Below, in pieces: positions 21,601-44,292 of a DNA stretch of 47,983 bases. The translations under genes and the position numbers were made by a program. This DNA is from Candidatus Woesearchaeota archaeon (GTDB taxonomy: Archaea; Nanobdellota; Nanobdellia; SCGC-AAA011-G17; PNOQ01), in assembly GCA_043812195.1 (NCBI GenBank), contig JBDRML010000023.1, positions 1-47,983 on the forward strand, given 5' to 3'. The stretch's first letter is position 1; the number at the start of each line of letters is the position of its first letter. Under the pieces are notes generated by a model. That model saw nothing but the letters and a program-made list of their open reading frames with translations, did not search any database and was not told the DNA's origin.

Positions 21601-21865
21601 TTAAAAAGATTAAATTTATTTAACCTCAAATAAAATAACTTTTATGGGATTATACCCCTTGCAATGAATATTATTGTTAAGATCATACTTACAAGTATAA
21701 CATTCGCCATAACCCTCTTTTTTCATATTGTTTATTATATTTGGCCTAAATAATTGATGCAGACAAAGAATTTTAATTTCCTTTTCGGAAATAATATTTT
21801 GTTTTTTACAAATTTCTACAAGACCCATAATAAATAAAGTAATTTAAGTATCTTTAAAAAGATTA
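21601..21865. repeat. 12-bp direct repeat TTAAAAAGATTA (21601-21612, 21854-21865) bracketing a small ORF
   Basis: Exact match read from sequence; AT-rich, so chance not excluded. Confidence 0.5.
21616..21828 (-). CDS. Small Cys-rich hypothetical protein
   Basis: C..C.H...C..C...C pattern; own TATA upstream. Confidence 0.55.
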   Translation of the reverse strand: MGLVEICKKQNIISEKEIKILCLHQLFRPNIINNMKKEGYGECYTCKYDLNNNIHCKGYNPIKVILFEVK

Positions 21866-21898
21866 GTATATTAATTAAATTAATAAATTAAAATTAAA

Positions 21899-22591
21899 AT
21901 GCTAAATCAAATTAAAAAAGACATAGAAGATTTAGAAAACCCTGAAAAAGCTAAACTTCTCCAAAGATTTTTCAAAACAGGCCCAGGACAATATGGTGAA
22001 GGTGATATTTTTTTAGGAATAACAGTTCCATTACAAAGACAAATAGCCAAAAAATACACAAATCTTTCTTTAGATGAAATTCAGGAATTATTATCAAGCA
22101 AAATACACGAGCATAGATTAATAGCATTACTTATATTAATAGATAAATACAAAAAAGCAGATCAAATTAAAAAAGAAGAAATATTAAATTTATACTTAAA
22201 AAATACAAAATACATAAACAACTGGGATTTAGTTGATTTATCAGCTCCAAATATTGTAGGTGATTATTTTCTTGAAAAAGATAAATCAATATTATACAAA
22301 TTAGCAAACTCAGATAATTTATGGGAGAAAAGAATAGCAGTATTAGCAACTTTCACATTTATTAAAAATAACAGATTTGATGATTCATTAAAAATATCAG
22401 AAATTCTGCTTAAAGATAAACATGATTTAATACATAAAGCAGTTGGCTGGATGCTTAGAGAAATAGGTAAAAAAGATCAAAAAACAGAAGAGGATTTCTT
22501 AAAAAAACATTATAAAAATATGCCAAGAACAATGTTAAGATACTCAATAGAAAGATTCTCAGAAGAAAAAAGAAAGTTCTATCTAAGTTAA
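21899..22591 (+). CDS. alkD: AlkD-family DNA alkylation repair glycosylase
   Basis: FFKTGPGQYGEGD.FLG, INNWDLVD, LWEKR, DLIHKAVGWMLREIGK, MPRTMLRY. Confidence 0.9.
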   Translation: MLNQIKKDIEDLENPEKAKLLQRFFKTGPGQYGEGDIFLGITVPLQRQIAKKYTNLSLDEIQELLSSKIHEHRLIALLILIDKYKKADQIKKEEILNLYLKNTKYINNWDLVDLSAPNIVGDYFLEKDKSILYKLANSDNLWEKRIAVLATFTFIKNNRFDDSLKISEILLKDKHDLIHKAVGWMLREIGKKDQKTEEDFLKKHYKNMPRTMLRYSIERFSEEKRKFYLS

Positions 22592-22667
22592 AAACATAAG
22601 CTTTAAAGCAAACGTCAGTTAAAGAAATTAAAAAATGAAAGAATTAGTTTTAATCCTTATTCAATAA

Positions 22668-23063
22668 CTACACTAACTCTTCTCTTGGAACCAAAGTTGT
22701 AGTTAGATTTCTTTCCAAGTATGTTACTTGGGCTGCATCAAACATTGGAACTCCAGAAGCTTCCATCAATGTCATAATTTCTCCTGATTTGCGTTCCTTG
22801 GCATAATTTATATACATATATTGTATTTTCGATGCAGTTTCTCTTGAAGGCTCTACCTCTGTTATTTCTCTTATAAGCCTCATTCTACCAAAATCTCCAT
22901 CTTTCAAACAATCTCGATAAGTATTTTGAACATCAAGATATAATCTATTTGGATTCACTCCAAAATTTTTTGCTACCATTGATACAACATTGTAAGGATG
23001 TTCTTTCATTCTCTCCTCTAACTTTTCTACTTGACTCTTTGGTTGTTTTCTTCCGAATATCAT
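22668..23063 (-). CDS. Hypothetical protein
   Basis: 131-aa ORF with its own promoter at 23094-23123. Confidence 0.65.
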   Translation of the reverse strand: MIFGRKQPKSQVEKLEERMKEHPYNVVSMVAKNFGVNPNRLYLDVQNTYRDCLKDGDFGRMRLIREITEVEPSRETASKIQYMYINYAKERKSGEIMTLMEASGVPMFDAAQVTYLERNLTTTLVPREELV

Positions 23064-23093
23064 TTTTATCTCTTAATTAGTATTAATTTTCCA

Positions 23094-23123
23094 TTTATAA
23101 ATCTTTCTATTTGTAACCACTTA
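23094..23123 (-). promoter_or_regulatory. Promoter with upstream TAAGTGGTTAC box, BRE and TATA
   Basis: Minus strand CTAAGTGGTTACAAATAGAAAGATTTATAAA; matches 62-92. Confidence 0.6.
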
Positions 23124-23193
23124 GAAATAATAATTAATCCTTTTCTCTCATAAAAACATAAGCTTTAAATAACCCTTTAAAATTAAAGTTAAC

Positions 23194-23565
23194 ATGAAAA
23201 AATCATTAATAATAATTTTCTTAGTAATAGTTGTTTTAGCAATAGCTGTATTTGGTTTTAATATTACTGAAAAGGCAACAGATACACCTGGAGAATATGA
23301 TGAATTTGCTCAATGTCTAACAACTGAAGGAGCAAAACTCTATGGATCATTCCAATGTTCACACTGTAAAACTCAAAAAGAAATGTTTGGTAATTCTATT
23401 CAATATGTAAATTATGTTGAATGTGGCCCATTAAGAGGCCCAATAGACAGTAAATGTATTGATGCAGGAATTGAAGCATATCCAAGTTGGATAATAAATG
23501 AAACTACGTATAAAGGAACACAAAGTCTATCTAAATTAAGTGATTTAACTGGTTGTGCTCTTTAA
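23194..23565 (+). CDS. Membrane-anchored thioredoxin-fold protein (like the VKOR-associated Trx domain)
   Basis: AQCL...GAKLYG..CSHCK.QK..FG, YVEC, C...GI.AYPSW. Confidence 0.8.
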   Translation: MKKSLIIIFLVIVVLAIAVFGFNITEKATDTPGEYDEFAQCLTTEGAKLYGSFQCSHCKTQKEMFGNSIQYVNYVECGPLRGPIDSKCIDAGIEAYPSWIINETTYKGTQSLSKLSDLTGCAL

Positions 23566-23576
23566 TTTTAATACAA

Positions 23577-24056
23577 TTATGTAAAACCTTCAATTTTACA
23601 ATCTTCTACAAGATCTTCTATACTTTTATAATCTGATCCCAAAACACGAAAAATATTCTCTACAACACAAACCCTTTTAGGAAGTTTTGTTCCATCAACA
23701 TATGAAGAAAGAGTTTGTCTTGGCAATCCTGTTTGCTCAGCAAGCCAAGTTTTATCATGCCCAATATCCCTTAATCTATTATTTATAAAACTACTAAGTA
23801 CTCTATTTTTAAATCTCTCACGTCTAATCATAAATCTTTTCTTTAAATAACTACCATAGCTTTCATAACCTCTTTTATGAATAGCTTCTTTTGAATAATC
23901 ATATGTAGAATTATAACCAGTTTTATCTCTGTTTGCATAAACAAACACAGTAGTACGAGATATTCCTTCTATTCTAGCTATTTCTCGAGAAGTATAACCA
24001 TTTCTTCTAAGTCTATCAATCGATTCTATTTGTGATTTATCTAATTTTTTTGGCAT
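23577..24056 (-). CDS. Double helix-turn-helix protein
   Basis: N-terminal GYTSREIARIEGISRTTV; C-terminal XRE-like WLAEQTGLPRQTLSSYVDG...P. Confidence 0.75.
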   Translation of the reverse strand: MPKKLDKSQIESIDRLRRNGYTSREIARIEGISRTTVFVYANRDKTGYNSTYDYSKEAIHKRGYESYGSYLKKRFMIRRERFKNRVLSSFINNRLRDIGHDKTWLAEQTGLPRQTLSSYVDGTKLPKRVCVVENIFRVLGSDYKSIEDLVEDCKIEGFT

Positions 24057-24069
24057 AGTAAATGTATTT

Positions 24070-25893
24070 TTAGAATAGTATCTCTACGTCACCATACATT
24101 TTTTTCAAATCTTCAAATAAACCTTCTTTAATACTCAAATGTTTAGGAAGTTCAAATTTAACTAAAGCATCATCCATTTCAATTATATCACTATCTTTAA
24201 TATTTTTTAATCTCCCATCCACAATATCAGCTTTTTTAATTATTTTCTTTTTTGCTCCAATATCTTCAGTAATAAACACAAGACCTTCCAATAATAACAT
24301 CTCGCCCAATTTCTTTTTATGCTTAAATCTAATCTTAGATCTTTCTACACCAGAGAATTGTTTTCTCTGAATATGATCAGTTAAAGTTCTAATAAAAGTT
24401 CTACCTTCTCTTTTTATCATATCACCTTCGGCCTTTGTTAATTTCTTAGCTTTGAAATCTTTATACGCCTTTTCAAACATCTTAAAATCATCAACTAATC
24501 TAACAGGCAATCCTTCTTTATCACAAAACTTTCTAAATCCAGCTTCAATACTTTTATAATTTTTAATTCCGCCTTCCAAAATAGAATCTTCAGTAACTTT
24601 AAGAATTGTACTATGAACATGACCTAAATTTTCTTTTTCCTTTTTCCTTTCAATCTGATCAAATAATTTCTTAATTCTCTTCAAATAATTTTCAGAATCA
24701 TTCAAAATTTTATCTAATTCAGCACCTGTGACTTCCTTAAGTTTACCATGTTCCATATCTTTAAAGAATAATCTTAATTTTTCTAAAGTATTTACATATG
24801 TTTGTTCTAATATTTTTTCTTTTTTAACAAATATTTCTTCCATCAACTTAACAGTCTCTTTAGGTGTTGGTGGAGTAACTCCATACAACATCAAAGCAGC
24901 CTGACTAGGATTTAACACAGCATAATACAAATCTTCAGAAGCAATCAACAACATTTTTTGCTTAGCTCTCTTAATTAAACTCTCTCCCATATTCATCTGC
25001 ATATCAATAGCTTCAGGACTCGGTCTTATTCTCCCCATATTTAATAATAATCTCCAAGGCATAAACACACCCCTATCATAAATAGGAATACCATCTCTCA
25101 ATAAAGTAAATATAACTGGATGAGCATCTTTTACAGATTCCCAAAAGTCAGTTAAAATATAAGTCTGAACATGAAATTGCTTTTTAACTCCAGTCATTGC
25201 AGCAGCTTCAAATCCCATACTAACAATCAAGCCCCTTAATTTATCTTTCAATTCAATTCTAGACATTCTTTTTACATCTGTATCATCAATTACAACATAA
25301 ACATCAATATCATTAGATTTCTCTCCCCTAAATAAAGAGCCTGCAGCAACATAACTTAAAATATACTTATCAAATTTCCTTATGACCATATTTTTATGCA
25401 CTTCAGAAATCTTTAATGCACCCAAAAAATCAACAGGATCATAAATAATCAAAGACATCGCAATATCTTGTAAGATTTCATACTTAGAATCAAACAAAGC
25501 CTCTTTAATTTCAGACATTAACATTATATCTAAAAAGAAATGCTTATCAATTTCTTTAGTTATCTTAACTAATTCTTTAGCAACACTATCTTTTAATTTA
25601 TAATCTGGCTGAACTTTAGATTTATTATCATTCAAGGCAATAAAGATATCAATTTGATTCTTATCAACAGGCGGAACCAATCCTTTTTTCACCATCTCAG
25701 GATCAACTTTTCTCGGCGGTAATAAAGCTATACCAACTACATCCTTTTTATAAGATTTCAGAATTTTTTTCTCTAATTTACCTAGTTTTTCTTTTAATTC
25801 CTTTTGCTTCTTAATAACTGCCTCTGGAATTTCAGGCATTTGAGGATTTTCAGGAACATGCTGAGTATTCATTGTAGTATTAAGCTTAAACAT
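24070..25893 (-). CDS. Nucleotidyltransferase (Pol-beta/MNT) and HEPN domain fusion protein
   Basis: AGSLFRG...DIDVYVVIDD; HEPN-like DLYYAVLNPSQAALML.G..P; start may be 25872. Confidence 0.75.
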   Translation of the reverse strand: MFKLNTTMNTQHVPENPQMPEIPEAVIKKQKELKEKLGKLEKKILKSYKKDVVGIALLPPRKVDPEMVKKGLVPPVDKNQIDIFIALNDNKSKVQPDYKLKDSVAKELVKITKEIDKHFFLDIMLMSEIKEALFDSKYEILQDIAMSLIIYDPVDFLGALKISEVHKNMVIRKFDKYILSYVAAGSLFRGEKSNDIDVYVVIDDTDVKRMSRIELKDKLRGLIVSMGFEAAAMTGVKKQFHVQTYILTDFWESVKDAHPVIFTLLRDGIPIYDRGVFMPWRLLLNMGRIRPSPEAIDMQMNMGESLIKRAKQKMLLIASEDLYYAVLNPSQAALMLYGVTPPTPKETVKLMEEIFVKKEKILEQTYVNTLEKLRLFFKDMEHGKLKEVTGAELDKILNDSENYLKRIKKLFDQIERKKEKENLGHVHSTILKVTEDSILEGGIKNYKSIEAGFRKFCDKEGLPVRLVDDFKMFEKAYKDFKAKKLTKAEGDMIKREGRTFIRTLTDHIQRKQFSGVERSKIRFKHKKKLGEMLLLEGLVFITEDIGAKKKIIKKADIVDGRLKNIKDSDIIEMDDALVKFELPKHLSIKEGLFEDLKKMYGDVEILF

Positions 25894-25950
25894 AAACTTT
25901 TTAAAGTTTTCTAATATTACCTATTTATTATCTAATGGGGAACCTAAAAC

Positions 25951-26433
25951 ATGAAATATAATTTAATATCAAAAATATTACCGTTTTTCGCTGCAGGAGT
26001 ATTTTCAGCCGGTTGTGCAACTTCTAACAGAAATATAGCAACAGAATTAAGGGCACATGAGTATAAATCAGAATCTATTTGTCCAAACGGAGAAAGAAAT
26101 TCAACAACAATAAGAGATTTAGAATTAAGAACAAATTCAGAAGAAACAATAAGAATAGACACACAAAATTATGAAAGAAACCATGAAAAAGTCTGCGAAG
26201 AAAAACTAAAGGAAATGCTAGATAGATATTTTTCTGAAAGATTATCAAGAAGAGAAATAAAAGTAGAAATTTCCATAAAAAGATACGAAAAAACACCTCA
26301 AAAAATACACAAAAAACAAAGAACAAAAAAACATTTTAGTGAAGAAAGTTTAATATTAAGAAAACATCCTAGATATTTACCAGAAGGTTGCACAGAAGAA
26401 AGTTTAATATTAAAAAAAGAAAAAAAGAATTAA
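25951..26433 (+). CDS. Hypothetical lipoprotein-like protein
   Basis: Lipobox-like FSAGC; C-terminal EESLIL repeat. Confidence 0.5.
   Translation: MKYNLISKILPFFAAGVFSAGCATSNRNIATELRAHEYKSESICPNGERNSTTIRDLELRTNSEETIRIDTQNYERNHEKVCEEKLKEMLDRYFSERLSRREIKVEISIKRYEKTPQKIHKKQRTKKHFSEESLILRKHPRYLPEGCTEESLILKKEKKN
26341..26413. repeat. 19-bp direct repeat GAAGAAAGTTTAATATTAA (26341-26359, 26395-26413)
   Basis: Exact match, 54-bp in-frame period. Confidence 0.85.
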
Positions 26434-26660
26434 AATTCTATATCGTCTAAATCCAAACTTAATATTTCATCTAAATCATTATCAAGTTCTTCAATATCAC
26501 TCAAATCATCAACATCTTTAACCACTTCACCAGTAATATCTGCTAATGGGTCGCCTTCTTCAGAGCTCACTATGCGGGCATCATTGGAGGTGCAACTAGA
26601 GATGAACAATAGCGACCCCATTAGCAATACTACAAGCATAAAGGTTAATTTTCTTTTCAT
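26430..26660 (-). CDS. Small acidic lipoprotein-like protein
   Basis: Signal peptide ending ISSC; Asp-rich tail; overlap with the upstream gene. Confidence 0.65.
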   Translation of the reverse strand: MKRKLTFMLVVLLMGSLLFISSCTSNDARIVSSEEGDPLADITGEVVKDVDDLSDIEELDNDLDEILSLDLDDIEF

Positions 26661-27571: not shown

Positions 27572-27722
27572 TTTTTGAAAACCTCCTAAGTTTTCTATAC
27601 ATAGTATGAACAGTATTGCTTATAAAGAAACTTTTTAAAGTATCAAAATAAAGCTTTAGGAAGCTTTAATTCTAGCAGAACCTTTCAGAAAGCTTTAAAA
27701 GTATTATTTTCTAGAAAAAGTT

Positions 27723-28382: not shown

Positions 28383-28437
28383 TTAGTTTTATCAAAATAC
28401 GATAATTTTATATACCAACAAAAACATTAAAATTAAT

Positions 28438-28662
28438 ATGGAAAAGAAAATATTTAATTTTACAACAATAATAGAAAAAGGAGAAGATGATTGGTATATA
28501 GCTACTGTTCCAGATATTCCTGGGTGCTACACTCAAGGTAAAACTATTGCACAAGTTCTAGAAAGAATTAAAGAAGCTATAGAAGTATGTTTAGAAGCTG
28601 ATAAAGAGGACATAGAACCAATGAAATTTGTTGGAGTCCAACAGGTAGAAGTTAGAGTATGA
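28438..28662 (+). CDS. hicB: HicB-family antitoxin
   Basis: YIATVPDIPGCYTQGKT...IKEAIE. Confidence 0.9.
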   Translation: MEKKIFNFTTIIEKGEDDWYIATVPDIPGCYTQGKTIAQVLERIKEAIEVCLEADKEDIEPMKFVGVQQVEVRV

Positions 28663-28892
28663 CAAAACTCGTTCCTATTTCTGGAAAAAAATTATGCAAA
28701 ATTTTAGAAAAAATAGGTTTTGAAAAAATATACGGAAAAGGAAGCCACATAAGATTTAAACATAAAGATGGCAGAAGAACTGTTGTTCCAGTTCATGGAA
28801 ATGAAGAAATAGGCATAAGTTTACTAAGAGAAATTCTAAAGCAAATAAAATTAAGTAGAGATGATTATAATAATCTTAGAAGAAAAGTTTAG
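28659..28892 (+). CDS. hicA: HicA-family mRNA interferase toxin
   Basis: LEKIGF...KGSH..FKH.DGRRTVVPVH...LLREILKQ. Confidence 0.92.
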   Translation: MTKLVPISGKKLCKILEKIGFEKIYGKGSHIRFKHKDGRRTVVPVHGNEEIGISLLREILKQIKLSRDDYNNLRRKV

Positions 28893-28940
28893 AAATATTC
28901 TATCAAAATCTTTTTAAACTAAAAAATTAAGGAAAAATTA

Positions 28941-29279: not shown

Positions 29280-29941
29280 GAAAAATTTAAAAACTTTTAA
29301 TTTAAAATCTTATCATGAAATTATCTATTATTTTAGCTCTTTTAGTTCCTTATGTAGCTATGATCTTTGGTTTGTATGTTTTTCATAATGCATGGATTGC
29401 TTTTATTATTTATCACATTTTGATTTTGATTGTTATGATTTCTACAAAGAATATGGGTTATTGGAAAGAATTAGTTAAAGGAAGAAATGTTTTAATTATT
29501 TTCTTAGCAGTTTTATTTGGTATTTGTGGAGGATTATTAATTTATATTCTAGCACCATTTATTGGAATTAAGAGTTACATAAATCCAGCATTAGTTGCTC
29601 TTGGATTATCTGGTGTTTCTTGGTTAGTTTTTGTTTTTTATCATTCTCTTGTTAATCCATGGTTTGAAGAAGCTTATTGGCGTGGTTTTTTAGGAAGTAA
29701 GAAGAAAAGTATTGTTTTGAATGATATAATTTTTGCTGCGTATCATATGCTTGTTTTATTTCTGTTTTTAGAATGGTATTGGGTTTTGTTAGCTTTTGTT
29801 ATTTTAATAACTACGGCTTGGCTATGGAGACAGTTGGCAAGAAAATATAATGGTTTATTTATTCCTATGTTATCACACATGGCAGGAGATGCAAGTATAA
29901 TGATTGTAGTTTATTTTTTGGCAGTTTAGGGAAATGAGAAA
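29272..29941. repeat. 12-bp direct repeat GGAAATGAGAAA (29272-29283, 29930-29941) bracketing the CPBP gene
   Basis: Exact match read from sequence. Confidence 0.7.
29315..29929 (+). CDS. CPBP (CAAX/Abi) intramembrane metalloprotease
   Basis: EEAYWRG, FAAYH, SHMAGD motifs; polytopic. Confidence 0.85.
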   Translation: MKLSIILALLVPYVAMIFGLYVFHNAWIAFIIYHILILIVMISTKNMGYWKELVKGRNVLIIFLAVLFGICGGLLIYILAPFIGIKSYINPALVALGLSGVSWLVFVFYHSLVNPWFEEAYWRGFLGSKKKSIVLNDIIFAAYHMLVLFLFLEWYWVLLAFVILITTAWLWRQLARKYNGLFIPMLSHMAGDASIMIVVYFLAV

Positions 29942-30095: not shown

Positions 30096-30124
30096 CATAA
30101 ATACTATTCATTATTAGGTAAATT

Positions 30125-35281: not shown

Positions 35282-35285
35282 ATTA

Positions 35286-36129: not shown

Positions 36130-36178
36130 TCAAATCCTTTTCATCATAAAGATATACATCTATCTTTTATTAAACTTA

Positions 36179-36709: not shown

Positions 36710-36762
36710 AAGAAAATATCACAACAATAACCTTTATTAATATTTCTAATAGATTTCAAATC

Positions 36763-37452
36763 ATGGATTTATCAAGACAAGAGCTAATATTAGGAGAAAA
36801 ATCAAAGAAATTAGAGAACTCAAAAATCTGTATAGTAGGAATTGGAGCATTAGGTTCTTTATCAGCAGAATTATTAGTCAGATCAGGAGTTAAAAGCTTA
36901 ACAATCATAGATAGAGACACAATAGAAGACTCTAACTTACAAAGGCAGCATTTATTCACAAAAGAAGATATAGATAAACCAAAAGTAGAAATAGCAAAAA
37001 ACTACCTTAAAAAAATAAACCCAGATATAAATATAACAACACATTTCAAAAAGCTAGAAAAAGAAAACATAAACTTAATAGATTCAGACTTAGTTCTAGA
37101 TTGTACAGACAATTTTGAAATAAGGTTCCTAATAAATGAATACTGTAAAAAAAATAATATTCCATGGATATTTTCAGCTGCAATTAGAAACATAGGATAT
37201 GTATATAATATTTTACCAGATTCACCATGTTTCAATTGCATATTTCAAAAACTCAAATCAACAGAAATATGTTCAACAGCAGGAGTTCTAAACACCATTA
37301 CATCTTTAATTTCAAGCTTACAAATAAGTGAAGCCATCAAAATTTTAACAAATTCAAACTCAGAAAAAAACTTACTATTCATAGATCTATCAAATAACCA
37401 ATTTCACAAAATTAGAATAAATAAAAGAAAAGACTGTGAAATATGCAATTAA
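36763..37452 (+). CDS. ThiF/MoeB E1-like adenylyltransferase (UbaA-like)
   Basis: GIGALG, D.D.IE.SNLQRQ, DCTDN, PCFNC, C-terminal CEIC; no rhodanese domain. Confidence 0.92.
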   Translation: MDLSRQELILGEKSKKLENSKICIVGIGALGSLSAELLVRSGVKSLTIIDRDTIEDSNLQRQHLFTKEDIDKPKVEIAKNYLKKINPDINITTHFKKLEKENINLIDSDLVLDCTDNFEIRFLINEYCKKNNIPWIFSAAIRNIGYVYNILPDSPCFNCIFQKLKSTEICSTAGVLNTITSLISSLQISEAIKILTNSNSEKNLLFIDLSNNQFHKIRINKRKDCEICN

Positions 37453-37502
37453 TTCTCAAGAAATTGTCAAGATTTAAATAATAGTATATTATTATCTTTT
37501 AT

Positions 37503-37826
37503 ATGAAAGAAGAATCAATTTTTTTGGAACATGTAGGAGACAGCCCAAGAATGAGAGTATTACAATATTTAATAGAGGGAAGAGATCTTGATTATACTTT
37601 AACTGATATGCTTAATGCAGGGGTAAGTTGGGGGACTTTAAATCAATTAATTCCAATTCTTCTAAAATTAAATATAATTGTAAAAACTAGAAAAATAGGA
37701 AGAGCAACACTATACAAAATAAATAAAGGCAACCAAGTAGCTAAACAATTAATAGAATTATACGATTATCTACTTTTACAGAACTTAAATGAAATAGAAA
37801 AACAACATAAAAAAATTCCAGCCTAA
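37503..37826 (+). CDS. Winged-helix DNA-binding protein
   Basis: RMRVLQYL...AGVSWGTL...L....IVKTRKIGRATLY. Confidence 0.75.
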   Translation: MKEESIFLEHVGDSPRMRVLQYLIEGRDLDYTLTDMLNAGVSWGTLNQLIPILLKLNIIVKTRKIGRATLYKINKGNQVAKQLIELYDYLLLQNLNEIEKQHKKIPA

Positions 37827-37860
37827 AACTTTATATAAAAACAAAAACTCACAATAAAAA

Positions 37861-38157
37861 ATGAAAGCAGAAGTTATTGAAAAATTAGCAGCATTAATGA
37901 CAGCAGCATTAGGTTTAGTTGCAGCTTTAGCATGGAATGGTGCAATACAAGCAATTTTCAAAGAACTTTTTGGAGCACCAGATCAAATAACCGCTATGGT
38001 AATTTATGCAGTCGTTATAACAGGAATAGCAGTAATATTAATAATTTGGATAGCAAAAGCAGAAGAGCACACTAAAAGAAGATTCACAAGAAAGCAAGAA
38101 AAAGAATTAAAAGAAGAAATTAAAGAAGAATTAAAAGAAGAAGAGAGAAAAAAATAA
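37861..38157 (+). CDS. Two-TM small membrane protein (DUF5654-like)
   Basis: TAALGLVAALAWN.AIQ...YAVVIT. Confidence 0.7.
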   Translation: MKAEVIEKLAALMTAALGLVAALAWNGAIQAIFKELFGAPDQITAMVIYAVVITGIAVILIIWIAKAEEHTKRRFTRKQEKELKEEIKEELKEEERKK

Positions 38158-38248
38158 TTTTTTCTTTTTTATTTTTAATCAATAAATATTTAAATACAAA
38201 AATCTAAATTTCAAATATATTAAAAAACATAACTAAGCACCAGAACGT

Positions 38249-38770
38249 TTATATCCCGATTTTGAGGAATACTTGATTTGTCTTTCCTTTTGGAACTTTC
38301 TTTATAAGCTCTTTTTTATCCAATTCAGATAAAACTAGACTTAATTTAGTCTTACTCATATCAGTTCTTATCCTTAATGTATTCTGCTCAATACCATCTT
38401 GCTCTTTTACAACTCTCAAAATTTTCTTCTCATCTACACTTAATCCCTTTAAAATTAATTCAAATTTTTCATCTTCTTTAGTCTTAGTATCAATTTCTTT
38501 AATCTTACTCAACACAGCTTTTTCAGATTTAGAAAAGAACACTAAGTAAATTCCAAGAGCCATAATCAATGCACTTATTACATAACCAATAGTCATAGGC
38601 AAATTACTAGCTTCATGAATACATTCACCTTCATCATTAACACAAAAACCTCCACTGGCATCCATCAGATCATTAACTAAGTGATTAATATTACTTTGAA
38701 CAAAAATCAAAGCTACAATCATCAATAATGATAATACAATTAAAACCCAGCCAAGTTTTTTATTTTCCAT
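38249..38770 (-). CDS. Membrane-anchored MarR-like winged-helix regulator
   Basis: Two TMs with a Cys-containing loop; GIEQNTLR....SKTKLS..L..L.....IKK...GKTN. Confidence 0.8.
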   Translation of the reverse strand: MENKKLGWVLIVLSLLMIVALIFVQSNINHLVNDLMDASGGFCVNDEGECIHEASNLPMTIGYVISALIMALGIYLVFFSKSEKAVLSKIKEIDTKTKEDEKFELILKGLSVDEKKILRVVKEQDGIEQNTLRIRTDMSKTKLSLVLSELDKKELIKKVPKGKTNQVFLKIGI

Positions 38771-38815
38771 TATTTAATTTTAAAAATAGTTCTATTTTTA
38801 AAGCTTTCTTTTTGA

Positions 38816-39013
38816 TTATCCTCCACTAACTACACTCAAAAACTTTATATTATCTCCATTTTTAATATTAGTTTCAGAAGTAACTAATTCATCATTTTTA
38901 ACAATTATAAACTCACTAGCATTAATCTTTAATTTATCAATTATTTCTTTTATATTCTTAGCATCAATGCTCAAATTCTTATTTTTATTATCGACATAGA
39001 CTTTTATTTTCAT
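38816..39013 (-). CDS. Ubiquitin-like sulfur carrier (SAMP/ThiS/MoaD family)
   Basis: 65 aa ending GDNIKFLSVVSGG (di-Gly). Confidence 0.9.
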   Translation of the reverse strand: MKIKVYVDNKNKNLSIDAKNIKEIIDKLKINASEFIIVKNDELVTSETNIKNGDNIKFLSVVSGG

Positions 39014-39016
39014 TTT

Positions 39017-39448
39017 TCAATAGAAATAAACTTGAGGAGTTCTTACCTTAATACCTGCAAATTCTAATTTTGACATATTTTTTTTACTCTTGGTAACACA
39101 GTTATAGATATCCTGATGGTTTACATCTTCTGGCAACTGTCTTTCACAAAATCTTAGCAAATAATTTGTAGTTATAACATGAGGAAATATTGCTCTTATC
39201 TCAAGTATATCATATGCAGGAGAAAATCCATAATCAACAGTAGATAAACCAAATGCTAAATCTTGATTTCTTTCAACAATTTCTTTCAATCTTTCAATTT
39301 CAGCAGCTTTTATTTTTGCTTCTAAAAATTTATGACGCAGTCCTTTATTTCCCCAAACATTAGGACCACCAGCATAATATACTATTTCAGATGAATGTAA
39401 TCTTCCATCTAATACCCTCAAAAAATCCAAATCATCTTTTCTTACCAT
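39017..39448 (-). CDS. Hypothetical protein between the ncsA-like and SAMP genes
   Basis: 143-aa ORF with no recognised motif. Confidence 0.6.
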   Translation of the reverse strand: MVRKDDLDFLRVLDGRLHSSEIVYYAGGPNVWGNKGLRHKFLEAKIKAAEIERLKEIVERNQDLAFGLSTVDYGFSPAYDILEIRAIFPHVITTNYLLRFCERQLPEDVNHQDIYNCVTKSKKNMSKLEFAGIKVRTPQVYFY

Positions 39449-39479
39449 ATTAAAGCAAATATATTACCCTTTATAAGTT

Positions 39480-40391
39480 TTATTTTTTCAAAAGTTCAGC
39501 ATACTCACAAGCCTTACAAAGTTTTTGCGAGCTAACTTCCCCACATTCATCACAACTATTTACTAAAGCATTCTTATATTTTTTCTTTAACAATGGCAAA
39601 ACTTCCAAAAAAGACTGAATAATAGAATACTTAGTAGCAGGATATTTATTATCAAATTTATTCAACATATCTCTAACTTCATTCCTAAAAGAATCAACAG
39701 TATATGGACAATCATTAAACTTATCAGTTAATTTATTCAAATAAGCATAAGTCATAATCTCTTTCTCAGTCAAAAAATAAAACGGTTTAATTCTCTGTAT
39801 AAACTTCTTACGTTTTTTAAGACCAGTAACAGGACCTAATCTAGCAGAAGTAGCAATATTACTCTTAAATTCATTCATTAAAATAGACTGTGCCTCATCA
39901 TCTAAATTATGTCCAGTAGCTAATTTCTTAATATTCAACTTCTGAGAATACTTATTCAATAAATACCTTCTAAATATTCCACATATAGTACAAGGATTAA
40001 CTTTCAACTTCTTCAAAGCTTTATCCAAAGTATATCCAAATTCATCTTCAAAAGTATAAATATATAATTCAATATTATTCTTTTTACAATAATCTTCAGC
40101 TGTTTTTCTAGAAGCATCCCTATATCCATGAATGCCCTCATCAATCAAAATAGCAATTAAATTAATTTCTCGTTCACTAAACAATTTATTCAAAACATGC
40201 AATAAACTCAAAGAATCCTTGCCTCCAGAAATAGCAACTCCAATTTTATCTCCCTTATTAAACATCTTATACTTTCTTATAGTTTTTCTTACTTTTCTCT
40301 CAAAATAATGAATAAAACATGATTTACAAAGAGAAACTTCACTATTAGGAAGCTTAATTACAGGATTTGTTTTACATTTTGCGCATGTCAT
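39480..40391 (-). CDS. ncsA: tRNA 2-thiolation enzyme (NcsA/TtuA/Ncs6 family)
   Basis: N- and C-terminal Zn fingers, SGGKDS PP-loop, CTICGIFRR, TGHNLDD, CPY. Confidence 0.9.
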   Translation of the reverse strand: MTCAKCKTNPVIKLPNSEVSLCKSCFIHYFERKVRKTIRKYKMFNKGDKIGVAISGGKDSLSLLHVLNKLFSEREINLIAILIDEGIHGYRDASRKTAEDYCKKNNIELYIYTFEDEFGYTLDKALKKLKVNPCTICGIFRRYLLNKYSQKLNIKKLATGHNLDDEAQSILMNEFKSNIATSARLGPVTGLKKRKKFIQRIKPFYFLTEKEIMTYAYLNKLTDKFNDCPYTVDSFRNEVRDMLNKFDNKYPATKYSIIQSFLEVLPLLKKKYKNALVNSCDECGEVSSQKLCKACEYAELLKK

Positions 40392-40430
40392 TAGTAAACA
40401 TATTTTTAGATAAATTTAAAAAAGTATCTT

Positions 40431-40973
40431 TTAACTTAAATCCAAAATTACTTTTAAAGGACTGTATTCAAGGATATATCTTAGCGCTCTTTCATCTTGA
40501 TCTTTATCATTAATAAAATTTATTTTTTGATCCCCAAGAGCACCAATTACAGCTTCCCTACAATAATCAAAATGCTCTGTTGTTGGTCCCTCCTTAAAGC
40601 TTGATTCAAAATTATTAGTATAAGAAGCAATATGACTTAATAATTCAATTCTATTTTCACGGAAAAAATATTTAAATAAAAATAAGATGTCTTCTGAAGT
40701 TCTTTGATGTCCTTCAGCCAGCTGAAAAGCTTTTTTAATAATATAATGGTCTTCAATTTCAGTTATTATTTGAATGCATAAATCATATTCATTCATTGAA
40801 CTAATAGCTATTTTACGTGTTCTTAAACATGCCTTTAGCACCTTATTAACCATATCCTCACAAGGAGAAATAATAAATCCAATCTGAGAAGAAATCACAT
40901 CATCAATAGACTTTTTAAAGAACTTCTCTCTTACTAATTTAGCATATTTAGATTCCATGTTCAATTTTAACAT
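40431..40973 (-). CDS. Hypothetical protein
   Basis: Long ORF, no motif; start may be the internal ATG (MESKY). Confidence 0.55.
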   Translation of the reverse strand: MLKLNMESKYAKLVREKFFKKSIDDVISSQIGFIISPCEDMVNKVLKACLRTRKIAISSMNEYDLCIQIITEIEDHYIIKKAFQLAEGHQRTSEDILFLFKYFFRENRIELLSHIASYTNNFESSFKEGPTTEHFDYCREAVIGALGDQKINFINDKDQDERALRYILEYSPLKVILDLS

Positions 40974-41045
40974 TTAATTAGGGTTTATAATAATTTTCAA
41001 TTTAAGAAAACTTTTTAAACAAAAATATCTGAAATAAACTAGATT

Positions 41046-41720
41046 ATGGAAAAATACAAAATAGAGGTCATAGGAATTAAAAAATTTTCAGAGGGCAGCT
41101 TCATTTTAAAAACCAAAAAGCCAAAAGCCTTTAATTTTAAAGCAGGGCAATTCGTAATGATTCATTATAAAAATAACAAAAAAGCATTTTCTATTTCCTC
41201 CCATCCATCAAACAAAACACTTTATTTCTTAATAAAAAAACACAATAAAGGAGCAGTAACACCATTTTTATATAATTTAAAAAAAGGAGATAAAATAGAG
41301 ATATCCGGACCATTTGGAGCATTCACTATAAAAGATTTATCATCTAAAGAAATTATTTTCATTGCTGCTGGGACAGGGATTTCTCCATTTAGAGGCATGA
41401 TATTAGAAGCATTAAAAAGATTCCCAAATAAAAAAATAAATCTAATCTTTGGATTTAGACAAGATTTTTATTACAAAGATTTTTTTGATAAATTAAAAGA
41501 AAAAAATAAAAACTTTAATTATCATGCATTTTGCACAGGAAATATTAAAGATTGGAAAGGAAAAAAAGGCAGAGTTACAGAACATATGCCAAAAATAATC
41601 ATATCTCCTAATAACAAAGAAGCATTTATATGCGGGCCAAAAGAAATGGCAGAATCAACAAAAAACACATTAATAAAAATAGGTTTTAAATTAGATCAAA
41701 TTCATATGGAAAAATGGTAA
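41046..41720 (+). CDS. FAD/NAD(P)-binding ferredoxin-reductase-type oxidoreductase
   Basis: FKAGQF, AFSISS, GPFG.F, AAGTGISPF, FICGP. Confidence 0.9.
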   Translation: MEKYKIEVIGIKKFSEGSFILKTKKPKAFNFKAGQFVMIHYKNNKKAFSISSHPSNKTLYFLIKKHNKGAVTPFLYNLKKGDKIEISGPFGAFTIKDLSSKEIIFIAAGTGISPFRGMILEALKRFPNKKINLIFGFRQDFYYKDFFDKLKEKNKNFNYHAFCTGNIKDWKGKKGRVTEHMPKIIISPNNKEAFICGPKEMAESTKNTLIKIGFKLDQIHMEKW

Positions 41721-41732
41721 AATGGAGGAAAA

Positions 41733-41951
41733 ATGAAATACAAAATTAAATACCACAAAGACAAATGCATAGGAGCAGGAAGTTGCGCTAAAATAGCACC
41801 AAAAACATGGAAATTAGGTAGTGATGGATTAGCCATTCTTTTAAAATCCTCATTCACAGATGCAGAAAAAGCTATAAATGTGAAAGCAGCAAAATCTTGT
41901 CCAGCTCAAGCTATAGAAATCTTTGATGAAAAGGGCAAAAAAATTGTTTAA
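41733..41951 (+). CDS. Monocluster ferredoxin, probably [3Fe-4S]
   Basis: CIGAGSC...CPAQAI (second Cys replaced by Ala). Confidence 0.85.
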   Translation: MKYKIKYHKDKCIGAGSCAKIAPKTWKLGSDGLAILLKSSFTDAEKAINVKAAKSCPAQAIEIFDEKGKKIV

Positions 41952-42327
41952 AATCTATGTACTAGGAAATCCTTTAATAGAAGAAGACTCTCTCCCAATC
42001 AAATTATTGCCAAAACTCAGAGAAAATTTCAAAAATATTTCTTTCGTAGAAATTGATCCAACAGAAACACTACCAGAAGGAAAAAACCTAACAATTTTAG
42101 ATACAATAATAAACACAGAAGAAATCAAAATTCTAAAAGATATAAGTAAAATAGAATCCCAACCAAATTATTCCTTACACGATTTTGACTTAGCTTTCAA
42201 TCTTAAATTAATGAAAAAACTAGGACAAATAGATAATGTTACAATAATAGGTCTACCACCAAATATAAATCAAAATAAAGCAATAAAAGAATTAAAACCA
42301 ATTATATCCAATTTACTATCCACTTAA
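41923..42327 (+). CDS. Hydrogenase maturation protease-like protein (HycI/HybD fold, divergent)
   Basis: VLGNPL..D, ILD, SLHD..L...L.L, IIG.P; next to the hydrogenase; start uncertain. Confidence 0.65.
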   Translation: MMKRAKKLFKIYVLGNPLIEEDSLPIKLLPKLRENFKNISFVEIDPTETLPEGKNLTILDTIINTEEIKILKDISKIESQPNYSLHDFDLAFNLKLMKKLGQIDNVTIIGLPPNINQNKAIKELKPIISNLLST

Positions 42328-42736
42328 TCTAAGCATATCTATATTAGTAAATATCCTAACTTTTTGCTGTTCCTTAAAATGTGGATCATGAGTCCATATT
42401 CCTTCAGATTTATATGAAAGGCTAACTGCTAAATAAGAGATATCTTTAGAATCATTTATTTCATCTTTAATATCATCTATAAACCCCATATATTCTTGCT
42501 TTGGAACAATACTAATGTACTCAAAAATTAAAGACAATAAAATATCAAATTTTTCTTCATCTATCTCTGCTTTTCTTATTATATATTCTTTATATTTATC
42601 TATTTCACTTCTTATAAAATCTGGCGCTATAAATTCAAGCTATAAATTCAAAATTCTTATCAAATAAGATTTCTCTTGTTGTGCTCTCTTTTATTAGGGC
42701 CGCAATAACTCTATTAGAATCAATCACGATTTTCAT
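42316..42736 (-). pseudogene. PIN-domain toxin frameshifted by a 13-bp tandem duplication
   Basis: [16 protein letters not shown]...; GCTATAAATTCAA twice at 42626-42651; removing one copy restores a 135-aa ORF ending D.KD..YLA...IWTHD.HF. Confidence 0.9.
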
Positions 42737-42960
42737 TTAATTAAACCATGTTTTTTAGCTATTCCTTTATTTATTTTTCTACTTATCTCTAAGACATCTT
42801 TCTCAGTAAATTTACTTTTTGAAAGCAATTTATCCATTAACTCCAACTTTCTAGCCTTTTCCAGAATAGCATGTCTAGCAACTTCACTCCATTTTACATC
42901 TTTATGCTTTTTCATTATTCTATGCAATTCATTTGGTAACGCAAGTGTCATATTGGTCAT
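42733..42960 (-). CDS. RHH-like antitoxin
   Basis: [16 protein letters not shown]...KWSEVAR.AI; AGGTGA RBS; ATGA overlap with the PIN gene. Confidence 0.8.
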
Positions 42961-42970
42961 TTTTATCACC

Positions 42971-42995
42971 TAAGTAATTTAAGTAGATATACTTA
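42971..42995. promoter_or_regulatory. Putative autoregulatory operator TAAGTA-GATA-TACTTA plus an extra half-site
   Basis: Palindrome at 42980-42995 between TATA and start; TAAGTA also at 42971. Confidence 0.5.
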
Positions 42996-43014
42996 TTTAA
43001 AGCTTTCGGTTTTT

Positions 43015-44292
43015 CTATATCCAATTTACTTTCAAAAAATGAGTAGCACAACTAATACAAGGATCATAGGCTCTGATTAACTTCTCAATTTCATATTGAA
43101 TTTCTTCTTTAGATTGTTTCTTCAAATTATTTTGAACTAGTTTCTTAATATCTAACTCCATATTAATCTGATTCTGTTGTGTAGGAACTACAATATTGCC
43201 TTCTTTTATTGTTCCATTCTTAGTAATAGATAATCTATAAAATAAAGTTCCTCTAGGCGCCTCAATTACCCCAACACCTTCGCAAGCTTTAGGAGTGTAT
43301 TTAACAGGTTCTTCAGGTTTAAAATTATTTTTCTCAATTATATCAATACTATTATCTATTGCATGTAAAATCTCAATTCCCTGAGCTAAATTATTATGGA
43401 AAATATTATTAGATGGAAATAATTTCAAATATTTGGCAGCATCTCTCTTTGTATTTTTATGCAAAGCATTCTTATTCAGATTTATTCTTGCTAAAGCACC
43501 AACCATATACGTACCTCCTTTAAATTCATATCCAACTGCCTGAGAATAAGGCAAAACAACCTTATGTAAATACTTAAAATAATCTTTCTCCTTTATTCTA
43601 GTTCCCCTACTAGTAAGTATTTCACCATCCAAGAAATCAAAACCATTATTTACCAATCCAACAAAATTAGTTCTTCTAACATAATCAATCTTAGAATTAT
43701 AATAAATATCCAAAACTGGAAATAATCTTTTTCTCACATTTTTCAATTCTTTAACTAAATTTTTCAATTCTTCATTTTTAGGAATATTAGCAAAACCACC
43801 AACAGCAGGATAAGGAGCATGAACAGCTCTTCCAGCAACCACAGTACTTAATAAATTTCCAACTTTTTTAATAGCAAAAGCATCTTTCAACAAATCAGCT
43901 TCTGCACCTTCAAAATCCAAAACAGAATCTTTATTAAAAATATCAGGCAAAGTAAATAAATAAATATGTAAAGCATGATCTCTTATCATTAAACCATTCA
44001 TAGTCAATTTTTTCAATAATTTAGTTTGTTCACTAACTTTAACACCCAATGCATTCTCAATAGCTTCGAGACAACACATAGTATGAGCAATACTGCAAGT
44101 TCCACATATTCTAGCTACAGACTGAGCCAAAGTATCAATGCTTCTTCCCCTAATAGCCTGAGTAAAAAATCTTTTATTATCAGTAAATTTAATTTTAACT
44201 TTCTCAACTTTTCCATTAACAACTTTAACATCCAAATCAGCATGCCCTTCTATTTTACTTAAATTTTGTATATTTATATTGACATCTTTCAT
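43015..44292 (-). CDS. hydA: [NiFe]-hydrogenase large subunit, group 3 (3b sulfhydrogenase alpha-like)
   Basis: KIEGHA, ARICGTCSIAH (L1), EAPRGTL, VPTQQN, RAYDPCISCATH (L2) plus a short C-terminal extension. Confidence 0.92.
   Translation of the reverse strand: MKDVNINIQNLSKIEGHADLDVKVVNGKVEKVKIKFTDNKRFFTQAIRGRSIDTLAQSVARICGTCSIAHTMCCLEAIENALGVKVSEQTKLLKKLTMNGLMIRDHALHIYLFTLPDIFNKDSVLDFEGAEADLLKDAFAIKKVGNLLSTVVAGRAVHAPYPAVGGFANIPKNEELKNLVKELKNVRKRLFPVLDIYYNSKIDYVRRTNFVGLVNNGFDFLDGEILTSRGTRIKEKDYFKYLHKVVLPYSQAVGYEFKGGTYMVGALARINLNKNALHKNTKRDAAKYLKLFPSNNIFHNNLAQGIEILHAIDNSIDIIEKNNFKPEEPVKYTPKACEGVGVIEAPRGTLFYRLSITKNGTIKEGNIVVPTQQNQINMELDIKKLVQNNLKKQSKEEIQYEIEKLIRAYDPCISCATHFLKVNWI

Follow-up and report, generated by a model that had tools for sequence, protein, structure and literature searches.

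The window, the whole 47,983-nt stretch that was analysed, contains small accessory genes lying between direct repeats that differ from one gene to the next, which raises the question of whether these genes were inserted between their neighbours and, if so, by what mechanism. The host is, judging by the names given to its nearest homologues, a DPANN-kind archaeon from groundwater with a genome of 0.94 Mb (938 kb), 29% G+C, a completeness of 90%, and a coding share of 90%; a metagenome scan for relatives revealed none above 74% identity. All six exact repeats of the original prediction, with lengths of 12, 19, 12, 15, 13 (tandem), and 19 nt, were recovered (Table 1). Of the four flanked cassettes proposed, those bounded by the 19-mer (orphan ORF) and the 15-mer (vapBC) stood up, whereas the two bounded by 12-mers (Cys-rich ORF and CPBP gene) were at chance level. 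Thus, no fewer than two of the four represent genuine insertions, each lying between two copies of a piece of a neighbouring gene end.

Table 1. Repeats, inserts, and neighbouring genes in the window.
Feature	Position	Strand	Remark
12-mer TTAAAAAGATTA	21601..21612, copy 2 21854-21865		exact; around Cys-rich ORF 21616-21828 (-)
19-mer direct repeat, copy 1	22589..22607		opens on the stop codon (TAA) of DNA-alkylation-repair gene 21899-22591
543-bp insert with orphan ORF 22668-23063 (131 aa)	22608..23150	-	between the 19-mer copies
19-mer direct repeat, copy 2	23151..23169		exact
Two 24-nt copies, 23/24 identical, 54 nt apart	26341..26418	+	in frame within ORF 25951-26433
12-mer GGAAATGAGAAA	29272..29283, copy 2 29930-29941		exact; around CPBP gene 29315-29929
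HycI-like hydrogenase maturation protease gene	41923..42327	+	last codons formed by repeat copy 1 and insert (...ISNLLST-stop)
15-mer direct repeat, copy 1	42303..42317		exact, unique to the pair
698-bp vapBC insert	42318..43015	-	vapB 42733-42969; vapC in two frames, 42635-42736 and 42316-42639
13-bp tandem duplication	42626..42651	-	inside vapC, frameshifts vapC
15-mer direct repeat, copy 2	43016..43030		minus strand encodes C-terminus ...VNWI-stop of hydrogenase large subunit
Displaced ancestral 3' end of HycI-like gene	43031..43046	+	with copy 2 reads ISNLL-SKNE-stop
NiFe hydrogenase large subunit gene	43015..44292	-	39-60% identity to relatives
First 157 nt of large-subunit gene	44137..44293	-	98.7% repeat on contig C14 (5247-5403)

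Direct exact repeats with copies 100–1500 nt apart were counted in the window and compared with order-1, order-3, and order-5 Markov shuffles, as well as with the real sequence in other bands of distance. Forty-three pairs of at least 12 nt were observed, versus 24.3, 27.9, and 33.4 in the shuffles of order 1, 3, and 5, respectively, and 13–32 in the other distance bands; therefore, a single 12-mer pair is ordinary. At 15 nt or more, five pairs were found against 0.6–1.1 expected, and at 19 nt or more, one pair against 0.01–0.02 (2–5 of 200 shuffles). Both the 19-mer and the 15-mer are present twice in the 938 kb genome and are thus unique to their own pair, with six genomic copies for the Cys-rich 12-mer and three for the CPBP one. 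The caveat that the 12-mers could be fortuitous was well placed, as both are probably chance matches: the Cys-rich 12-mer showed no extension beyond the exact match, and that around CPBP could be extended to 29 matches out of 40 (score 18), a value that 2.0% of 3654 12-mer seeds lying far apart also attain, and hence borderline with respect to chance. CPBP was detected in 5 of 40 relatives, in none of them with the same gene neighbours. The 19-bp repeat at 26341/26395, originally counted as part of the pattern, was rejected as a cassette boundary, since it is an in-frame coding repeat (EESLIL[RK]K twice, in ...EESLILRK...EESLILKK...) that flanks nothing.

Analysis of the hydrogenase locus showed that the vapBC module is inserted where the 3' ends of two convergent genes, encoding the HycI-like protease and the large subunit, overlap. 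As 15 bp of their overlap are now present on both sides of the insert, both genes keep a usable end. In all three hydrogenase-bearing relatives (3/3) the two genes abut or overlap (by 28 nt in relative G035) with no gene between them, so that the empty-site comparison called for by the original prediction supported it here. The bases to the right of copy 2, SKNE-stop in the HycI frame, match the tails of HycI homologues, which read ...LLSKNE, ...SKND, or ...SKSE; in the comparison of 16 homologues taken from at least 120, most run 3–6 residues further past LLS, and one ends in ...SKNE. A reading of the 15-mer as a chance match was discarded, being already refuted by the HycI tail and the empty sites.

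The insert itself is organized as a type II toxin–antitoxin vapBC module, with a PIN-domain toxin gene (PIN_2 match) after a small antitoxin gene that overlaps it by 4 nt, the toxin frame being broken. The upstream vapB ORF encodes 78 aa, and the antitoxin had no match in Pfam. The two vapC pieces, which overlap at EFIA, each align to homologues of 134–145 aa and span the full length of 140-aa homologues, and a 97%-identical 73-aa product is on record from other contigs. The 13-bp tandem duplication noticed originally is genuine and is probably a separate inactivating mutation of the toxin gene. Moreover, vapC falls 5 residues short of its homologues and its stop codon is formed at the junction; therefore, the end of the cassette is ragged and not defined. 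A sequence near 42994, about 35 nt upstream of vapB and inside the insert (AAGCTTTAAATA), reads as a putative promoter. Finally, the 157-nt repeat of the large-subunit gene begins exactly at its start codon, and the contig carrying the other copy (C14) may adjoin the right end of the window, judging from a 124-nt overlap of the ends.

In the case of the orphan cassette, the 19-bp stretch begins at the stop codon of the gene upstream and reaches into a TATA-like box of the gene downstream. The end of copy 2 and its flank together give a TTTAAATA box, a putative promoter some 25 nt ahead of the start codon (ATG) of gene 23194–23565, and a TTTATAAAT box upstream of the orphan ATG, inside the insert, can be read likewise as a putative promoter. 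The orphan ORF could not be assigned to any Pfam or PHROG family and had no match in viral contigs; among 239 other genomes of the order, one weak match was detected. This site is without comparative support because the gene order around it is not conserved.

The original prediction had also claimed that small accessory cassettes recur at gene ends, and this was borne out across the genome. For this, local repeats at the boundaries of 2613 gene units (one to three genes) were compared with strand-matched non-local controls, yielding 22 local exact 12-mers against about 14 in the controls, 13 repeats of at least 15 nt against 1.6 (range 0–4), and 9 of at least 17 nt against 0.1. A further count against background gave an enrichment as well: isolated direct repeats of at least 15 nt with both copies at gene boundaries and 100–2500 nt apart numbered 28, compared to 4–6 in three farther bands and 7 inverted ones. 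Several of these genome-wide matches are shared motifs, corresponding to the ribosome-binding region, a start-of-gene motif, and a dispersed hairpin. That no insertion took place, and that the repeats are chance or shared promoter or terminator motifs in AT-rich intergenic DNA, holds for the 12-mers as a class and finds some agreement in these shared motifs; nonetheless, it is extremely improbable as a general account, given how rarely a 19-mer is expected per window and the excess of boundary repeats of at least 15 nt over the strand-matched controls, and since neither the displaced HycI tail nor the empty sites in relatives can arise by chance.

Further cassettes with repeats of 16–36 nt contain PIN/AbrB, NTase-containing, and wHTH pairs as well as Fic genes, and the same anatomy was found in two related genomes; single genes seen in relatives include His_Phos_1 and HD. 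Overall, the repeats measure 15–36 nt, their imperfect arms reach up to 51–55 nt, and one repeat is of 157 nt. Each cassette has its own repeat, in agreement with the initial view that these are not copies of one att site. A second vapBC on contig C16 is bounded by a 23-nt repeat that corresponds to a stop-to-promoter spacer. Among the 29 loci of relatives, MBF1 and RpoL are 46–82 nt apart in 12, are separated by a conserved ORF of about 160–207 aa in another 12, and RpoL is missing from the locus in 5; hence, an empty site exists for this cassette too. The same contig bears an array of cassettes at 67–69.6 kb. One 18-mer, corresponding to the last codons of a 136-aa gene, forms a four-copy tandem array, between whose copies lie one Fic gene, one AAA_14 gene, and a fragment of a gene. 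In addition, an intact 12-kb element has a tyrosine recombinase at one end and a 14-nt repeat on a stop codon, and contig C38 shows a tRNA-end repeat with just two small ORFs remaining. Finally, a case at the S7 gene of contig C29 fits neither of the simple models: the usual S7 tail follows copy 1 and a T-K-stop follows copy 2, a tail present in none of the 28 loci of relatives with a complete tail, and 1 of the 120 database proteins compared ends in K.

The search of the genome for the enzymes suggested in the original prediction was successful in part. A single reverse transcriptase (RVT_1 match, C29 89357–90013) and four tyrosine recombinases (PF00589) were found, none of the latter in the scanned cassettes and one of them within the 12-kb repeat-bounded element. 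Cas1 (PF01867) gave no match in this 90%-complete genome; the same profile matched 7 of 14 reference genomes. Two DDE_Tnp_1 transposases over the family cut-off and one fragment were also detected, and no recombinase Pfam domain was found in the ORFs of the cassettes of the window or of those scanned on contigs C16, C22, C28, C29, and C37. The reverse transcriptase adjoins a template/variable-type repeat, one copy intergenic and the other inside a gene, and looks like that of a diversity-generating retroelement (DGR). Terminal inverted repeats were absent in eight of nine cassettes (p ≥ 0.27 versus shuffled ends), and the ninth, vapBC, gave p = 0.023, uncorrected. On inspection, neither a motif common to the different repeats nor a terminal A-run at the cassette ends inspected was noticed.

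These data bear on the possibility that the repeats are target-site duplications made with a long and variable stagger by an enzyme encoded elsewhere, either an IS1634-like DDE transposase, a casposase-like integrase, or a target-primed reverse transcriptase. Both vapBC cassettes and the orphan do show a flank–repeat–insert–repeat–flank order in which the original sequence continues beyond copy 2, candidate transposases and a reverse transcriptase are encoded, and one repeat has the 15 bp of casposon duplications. However, such an origin is distinctly unlikely in the absence of Cas1 and of terminal inverted repeats as transposase binding sites, with a reverse transcriptase of DGR appearance, with putative promoter boxes inside cassettes and no A-run noticed at their ends, unlike retrocopies, and with a four-copy array and a 15–157 nt length range that misfit a staggered cut. 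The retrotransposition or casposon mechanism put forward originally thus found no support in these data.

It is rather unlikely that the cassettes are accidents of replication or repair without a dedicated enzyme, in which foreign DNA would be incorporated at a break or through template switching, synthesis restarting 15–36 nt upstream of the point of departure to leave a variable duplication, and only harmless events surviving. Repeats of variable length without a common motif, cassettes without terminal repeats, and the ragged end within vapC agree with this, and slippage-type events do occur, as illustrated by the 13-bp duplication. Ku was not found in the genome, and therefore classical end joining is unlikely, leaving microhomology routes. 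Nevertheless, four tandem copies of one core are hard to obtain through independent accidents, and a 157-nt repeat from an exact start codon resembles homology and not slippage. Very unlikely is the alternative that the cassettes are remnants of larger integrase-bearing elements, from which deletions spared a toxin–antitoxin pair and two att sites. Toxin–antitoxin pairs resist loss, which would favour it together with the intact 12-kb element and the two-ORF remainder at the tRNA end in C38; however, in at least six separate cassettes the deletions would have had to halt, at both ends, 0–25 nt from promoter and stop codon, and neither the orphan nor the single His_Phos_1 and HD genes of relatives are addictive modules.

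The best reading, to which we give a probability of about one half, is insertion through a single crossover at a short att-like or shared sequence, and not retrotransposition or casposition. The repeats would mark a short stretch, common to the chromosome and the entering DNA, in which the crossover occurred, with an attL/attR-like outcome. Neither a circular form nor a donor was seen, nor was an exact empty site with one repeat copy in any close strain. The 157-nt repeat, the four-copy array, and the 12-kb integrase element point to recombination at short shared sequences over staggered-cut duplication. The crossover could be catalysed in trans by one of the four tyrosine recombinases, although a single integrase would need a very loose specificity because the repeats have no visible common motif, or by general recombination, of Campbell type or of the homology-facilitated illegitimate kind, with a donor fragment that is circular or anchored on one side. 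The premise that archaeal recombination may proceed at a useful rate on 15–36 nt of identity comes from work on other archaea. The location of cassettes at stop codons and promoters would follow, as in a genome that is 90% coding only insertions sparing both neighbours would survive selection.

Passages of Krupovic et al. 2019 (PMC6563490) give 8–25 bp as the size of thaumarchaeal att sites for most elements (median 17); of 68 elements, 14 occupy the 3'-distal end of a gene and 15 an intergenic position, and one element substitutes its own stop codon for that of the target. Tyrosine-recombinase elements, which carry the integrase by definition, measure 2.6–140 kb there, and casposon target-site duplications and terminal inverted repeats are also mentioned. 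As far as these passages describe such attL/attR elements, our cassettes resemble them in their short direct repeats, their tRNA, intergenic, or 3'-distal targets, the new stop, and the tandem reuse of a site, and differ in being of 0.5–1.1 kb, with one or two genes, each with its own repeat, and no recombinase; that is, the repeats lie at the expected kinds of sites with no integrase inside the element. With integron cassettes, including the archaeal ones (PMC9668308), they share single-gene or toxin–antitoxin content, a size of 0.5–1 kb, the absence of their own recombinase, and, on C16, an array. In contrast to those, they are mostly dispersed singly between core genes, and their boundaries are exact copies of target-gene ends; an inverted-repeat test, with no dedicated attC model, revealed no significant attC-like imperfect palindrome at the cassette ends.

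Casposons encode a Cas1 integrase and generate a 14–15 bp duplication. The cassettes are like them in duplicating some 15 bp of the target and in being inserted at 3' ends of protein genes, and unlike them in repeat lengths that are not fixed and in that no Cas1-family integrase, polymerase, or terminal inverted repeats inside the duplication were found. Neither do they show the terminal inverted repeats and fixed-length duplication of insertion sequences and MITEs, their repeats being of 15–36 nt, and the vapBC and orphan inserts include putative promoters, whereas a retrocopy starts at the transcript start and is missing the promoter. CIMEs of streptococci and cargo-only tycheposon relatives of Prochlorococcus are att-flanked, with a helper presumed to act in trans; the cassettes are likewise att-flanked DNA without recombination genes, but those satellites share the att site of their helper, and a helper whose sites match those of the cassettes was not found. 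Finally, Campbell-type insertion-duplication and homology-facilitated illegitimate recombination belong to naturally transformable bacteria and bacterial laboratory systems. They are known neither from archaea nor as routes of routine gene gain, and the identity here is of 15–36 nt; as in the cassettes, a short shared segment is duplicated around foreign DNA, with no specific ends or enzyme and a length set by the donor.

All six short direct repeats that the original prediction had read as part of a pattern of accessory-gene insertion were present exactly as described, and the observation is real yet uneven among the repeats. The 15-nt repeat around vapBC sits where two convergent genes have their 3' ends, one encoding a HycI-like protease and the other the large subunit of a NiFe hydrogenase. 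The proposed empty-site comparison found this locus without the insert in 3/3 relatives carrying this hydrogenase, the two genes abutting or overlapping with nothing between them (overlap of 28 nt in the relative genome G035). In the window, the HycI-like protein ends in ...ISNLLST-stop, and the same frame downstream of the second repeat copy reads ISNLL-SKNE-stop. Among HycI homologue tails (16 examined of 120 listed), the LLST end was common to a single one, 98% identical and from another assembly, and most others have tails such as SKNE, SKND, SKSE or SRND. At the level of sequence, the empty site in relatives, the displaced HycI tail and the homologue tails together show that 698 bp were inserted into the gene overlap with duplication of 15 bp, both genes keeping their ends.

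This insert is tightly packed: its box AAGCTTTAAATA is about 10 nt from one border, the overlap of vapB with vapC measures 4 nt, and the vapC stop codon spans the other border, 5 codons short of the ends of homologues of 134–145 aa. The 13-bp tandem duplication cuts vapC into frames of 33 and 107 aa, overlapping at EFIA. As a 97%-identical product of 73 aa is known from other contigs, the comparison suggests that this break is not an error of the present assembly.

At the orphan site, the 19-mer begins with the stop codon of an alkylation-repair gene and ends within a TTTAAATA box, about 25 nt upstream of the ATG of the next gene, and the 543-bp insert contains a single minus-strand ORF. No usable relative of this ORF was found in Pfam, PHROGs, Atlas, viral contigs, genome contigs or 239 genomes of the order, and gene order at the site was not conserved among 27 loci of relatives. 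When metagenomes were scanned with the alkylation-repair protein, 80 loci were recovered (best identity, 74%), none of them from a close strain or with the same neighbours. Insertion is therefore argued here from statistics and from analogy, and on these grounds it is likely. Gapped extension of the 19-mer into what would be a decayed copy of the start of the downstream gene was rejected, as it gained only 3 score points.

The statistics come from exact direct repeats lying 100–1500 nt apart in the window, compared with Markov shuffles of order 1, 3 and 5. Repeats of at least 12 nt numbered 43, versus 24, 28 and 33 in the respective shuffles and 13–32 in other distance bands of the real sequence, those of at least 15 nt numbered 5 versus 0.6–1.1 expected, and one of at least 19 nt was observed versus 0.01–0.02. 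The 19-mer and the 15-mer occur in the genome only at their own sites, and the 12-mers occur six (Cys-rich ORF) and three (CPBP) times. Upon extension, the flanks of the Cys-rich 12-mer showed no similarity, and the CPBP 12-mer reached 29/40 matches, a score attained by 2% of 3654 far-apart 12-mer seeds. On these findings, the 12-mers are no evidence of insertion, and the initial caveat that they could be due to chance was correct.

The two cassettes concerned, which may or may not be insertions, carry rare accessory genes. CPBP was found in 5/40 relatives, always in other contexts and with no repeats of at least 12 nt around it in those five, which neither supports nor refutes insertion; the Cys-rich ORF has a relative in 4/239 other genomes, within longer frames. 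A HicB/HicA pair lies immediately upstream of the PAP2-like and CPBP genes. Finally, the 26341/26395 repeat does not belong to the cassette pattern, being an in-frame coding repeat (EESLIL[RK]K twice inside one ORF).

The genomes of DPANN archaea are tiny and densely packed with genes, and little is understood of how accessory genes come and go in them. The present assembly, of which the window is contig C23, comprises 938 kb in 45 contigs, with 29% G+C, 90% completeness and a coding share of about 90% by our own ORF picking, and it is the sole member of its genus among the genomes compared. Its nearest protein homologues carry the source names Pacearchaeota, Woesearchaeota or Nanoarchaeota, on which basis the genome is taken to be that of a DPANN archaeon, and the runs with near-identical DNA are labelled groundwater metagenomes.

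Across this genome, local direct repeats of at least 15 nt, 100–1500 nt apart, numbered 147, versus 31–39 in farther bands and 12–13 in shuffles. A filter for isolated repeats (flanks less than 50% identical, both copies at gene boundaries, 100–2500 nt apart) retained 28 of at least 15 nt, versus 5, 4 and 6 in the bands farther out and 7 in inverted orientation, and 10 of at least 19 nt, versus 2, 0 and 2 in those bands and 1 inverted. In a stricter test, 2613 units of 1–3 genes had the windows at their left and right boundaries compared with strand-matched windows from elsewhere, and matches of at least 12, 15 and 17 nt numbered 47, 13 and 9, versus 20.7, 1.6 (range 0–4) and 0.1, respectively. 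The recurring pattern is real genome-wide, with enrichment over controls, the vapBC insertion shown and that of the orphan likely; the two 12-mers and the 26341 repeat do not count towards it. Some of the genome-wide matches were rejected as cassettes, being shared motifs, namely a ribosome-binding region, a motif at gene starts and a dispersed hairpin. The G+C-rich, hairpin-like motif AGCGAGA...TCTCGCGCTCTCTTT is dispersed at gene ends on one contig, where two copies bracket four genes beside a duplicated gene start. On another contig, a perfect 73-nt direct repeat with copies 274 nt apart is intergenic and encloses no ORF of at least 50 aa.

Cassettes and cassette-like cases, related repeats and neighbouring features, with coordinates in the window or on other contigs (C numbers) of the same assembly
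Feature	Location	Repeat	Content	Setting
vapBC insert	window 42318..43015 (-)	15 nt; 42303..42317 and 43016..43030	vapB, vapC	
HycI-like protease gene	window 41923-42327 (+)			
NiFe hydrogenase large-subunit gene	window 43015-44292 (-)			
Orphan insert	window 22608..23150 (-)	19 nt; 22589..22607 and 23151..23169		
ORF with in-frame repeat	window 25951-26433	26341/26395		
HicB/HicA pair	window 28438-28892			
ThiF/ThiS/TtuA-like cluster	window 36763-40391			
wHTH-family gene	window 37503-37826			within the preceding cluster
IS200-type transposase	window 44466-44843			
Large-subunit gene start, two copies	window 44137-44293; C14 5247-5403	157 nt		
Nucleotidyltransferase/weak-HEPN pair	C14 4220-5251	12-mer ATAAAATAATTA		
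C37 cassette	C37	36 nt	wHTH and 84-aa ORF	between deoxyhypusine synthase and TrmB
C29 cassette	C29 55925-56650	31 nt	wHTH	after S7
C16 cassette	C16	23 nt	PIN and AbrB-type antitoxin	between MBF1-like and RpoL
C28 cassette	C28	21 nt, 51 with mismatches	nucleotidyltransferase and 129-aa partner	two-gene pair
C22 cassette	C22	16 nt, 55 with indels	wHTH pair	two-gene pair
C38 cassette	C38	15 nt	two small ORFs	at tRNA end
Relatives' cassette 1		20 nt	His_Phos_1 gene	
Relatives' cassette 2		17 nt, including upstream stop codon	HD-domain gene	
Four-copy locus	C16 67016-69660	18-mer ACAAATTACAACATAAAA		
12-kb stretch	C45 41575-53532	14-mer GTAGGCAAGTGTAA		
RVT_1 region	C29 89087-91465	17-nt seed; 90322/91449		
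Intergenic direct repeat	C17 9330-9676	73 nt		
Hairpin-like motif	C1 32329, 37441, 39233, 50865, 66915, 68641			bracketing copies 66915/68641

The wHTH family has five members in the genome, three of which have cassette-type repeats, all three different. A member of the family in the window, with no flanking repeat of at least 12 nt, breaks up a sulfur-carrier or tRNA-thiolation cluster of ThiF-like E1, ThiS-like and TtuA-like PP-loop genes. For the PIN/AbrB cassette, an empty site was found in 12/29 loci of relatives, with an MBF1–RpoL spacing of 46–82 nt and the same promoter-like box as in the repeat; the other loci contained a conserved ORF of about 160–207 aa (12/29) or no RpoL (5/29). 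Among the loci of relatives, about 775 kb in all, two clean cassette cases were detected.

Further repeat-bounded loci were found. The 18-mer of the C16 locus, present in four copies, corresponds to the last codons of a 136-aa gene, and its copies separate a Fic gene, an AAA_14/DUF4143 gene and a 157-nt gene fragment, so that the locus looks like an array built through reuse of one site. The hydrogenase large-subunit gene has its first 157 nt, from the ATG, repeated at 98.7% on C14, a contig whose end overlaps the right end of the window by 124 nt. From this we infer that C14 follows the window; given that adjacency, about 4.9 kb appears to lie between the two 157-nt copies, containing the IS200-type transposase, an 803-aa LamG protein and others. 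If C14 does adjoin the window, the hydrogenase small subunit would lie upstream on it in its operon. The nucleotidyltransferase/weak-HEPN pair, located between the small subunit and the large-subunit fragment and bounded by a 12-mer that includes the stop codon of the former, would bring the insertions in this single operon to three. In addition, the 12-kb stretch on C45 has a tyrosine recombinase gene 66 nt from one copy of its 14-mer, the other copy beginning on a stop codon, and is likely an intact integrated element. A 16-mer near the recombinase of C1 was rejected as a boundary repeat, as it reflects a shared Cys-x-x-Cys coding motif, and no terminal repeats were seen at the DDE transposase of C17, which has a 14-mer on either side.

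A simple duplication where the insert entered does not account for the C29 cassette. The 31-nt copy of the S7 3' coding end after the wHTH cassette is followed by T-K-stop, and the real S7 gene has its usual tail, ...QADSSR, after repeat copy 1, whereas any simple insertion model puts the old gene end after copy 2. S7 ends in R in 28/28 loci of relatives with a complete tail and in 119/120 database proteins, and no close strain with a T-K tail was found.

Regarding mechanism, target-primed retrotransposition and casposon integration had been named as sources of long, variable target duplications, and an enzyme encoded elsewhere had been proposed. The search for such enzymes recovered one reverse transcriptase and four tyrosine recombinases, and no Cas1 was found in this 90%-complete genome. 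The reverse transcriptase gene, the only RVT_1 of the genome, adjoins a 17-nt seed repeat for which one flank is 82% identical. One copy is intergenic and the other intragenic, an arrangement resembling the template/variable repeat pair of diversity-generating retroelements. Ku was not found in the genome, and DDE transposase genes gave two matches above the family cut-off plus one fragment. Inverted repeats were absent from the ends in 8/9 cassettes, and no sequence common to cassette ends was detected. Because of the four-copy array, the 157-nt repeat and the integrase element on C45, recombination at shared sequence is favoured over a staggered cut. A single crossover would occur at a short stretch common to the incoming DNA and the chromosome, catalysed by an integrase acting in trans or through general recombination with a fragment that is circular or anchored on one side, and selection would then keep those events sparing both neighbours. 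Neither a donor nor a circle nor an exact single-copy site was observed. Most likely, the mechanism is a small, integrase-less form of known att-type or homology-mediated insertion. An integron-like route without attC, in which promoter-to-stop units of 0.5–1.1 kb excise as one-repeat circles and re-enter gene ends sharing 15–36 nt through a loose-specificity recombinase encoded elsewhere, seems improbable; as part of that route, the wHTH proteins of three cassettes might serve as directionality factors.

These results show that essential or operon genes can receive single genes and toxin-antitoxin pairs between them, or into their overlapping ends, without damage, and that every such event leaves a short duplicated scar. 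Counts of this scar can be set against matched controls, and it offers a simple means of dating and mapping how metagenome-assembled genomes gained genes, and of detecting empty and filled alleles within populations. If the integron-like route were true, ultra-small genomes would exchange DNA horizontally in units of single genes, not islands; if the cassettes are only products of general recombination, they make a useful description, not a new mechanism. If they move without a recombinase of their own, the smallest known archaeal mobile unit would drop from 2.6 kb, the figure in PMC6563490, to about 0.5 kb.

In the literature searched, integrase-less cassettes with such repeats were not described. 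The integrated elements of Thaumarchaeota differ in being 2.6–140 kb long and carrying their own integrase (PMC6563490). However, their anatomy matches that of the cassettes found here: their att sites are mostly of 8–25 bp (median 17), 14/68 elements lie in 3'-distal gene ends and 15/68 in intergenic DNA, and the stop codon can come from the element itself (PMC6563490, same study). Integrase elements also reuse one site in tandem, like the four-copy array on C16.
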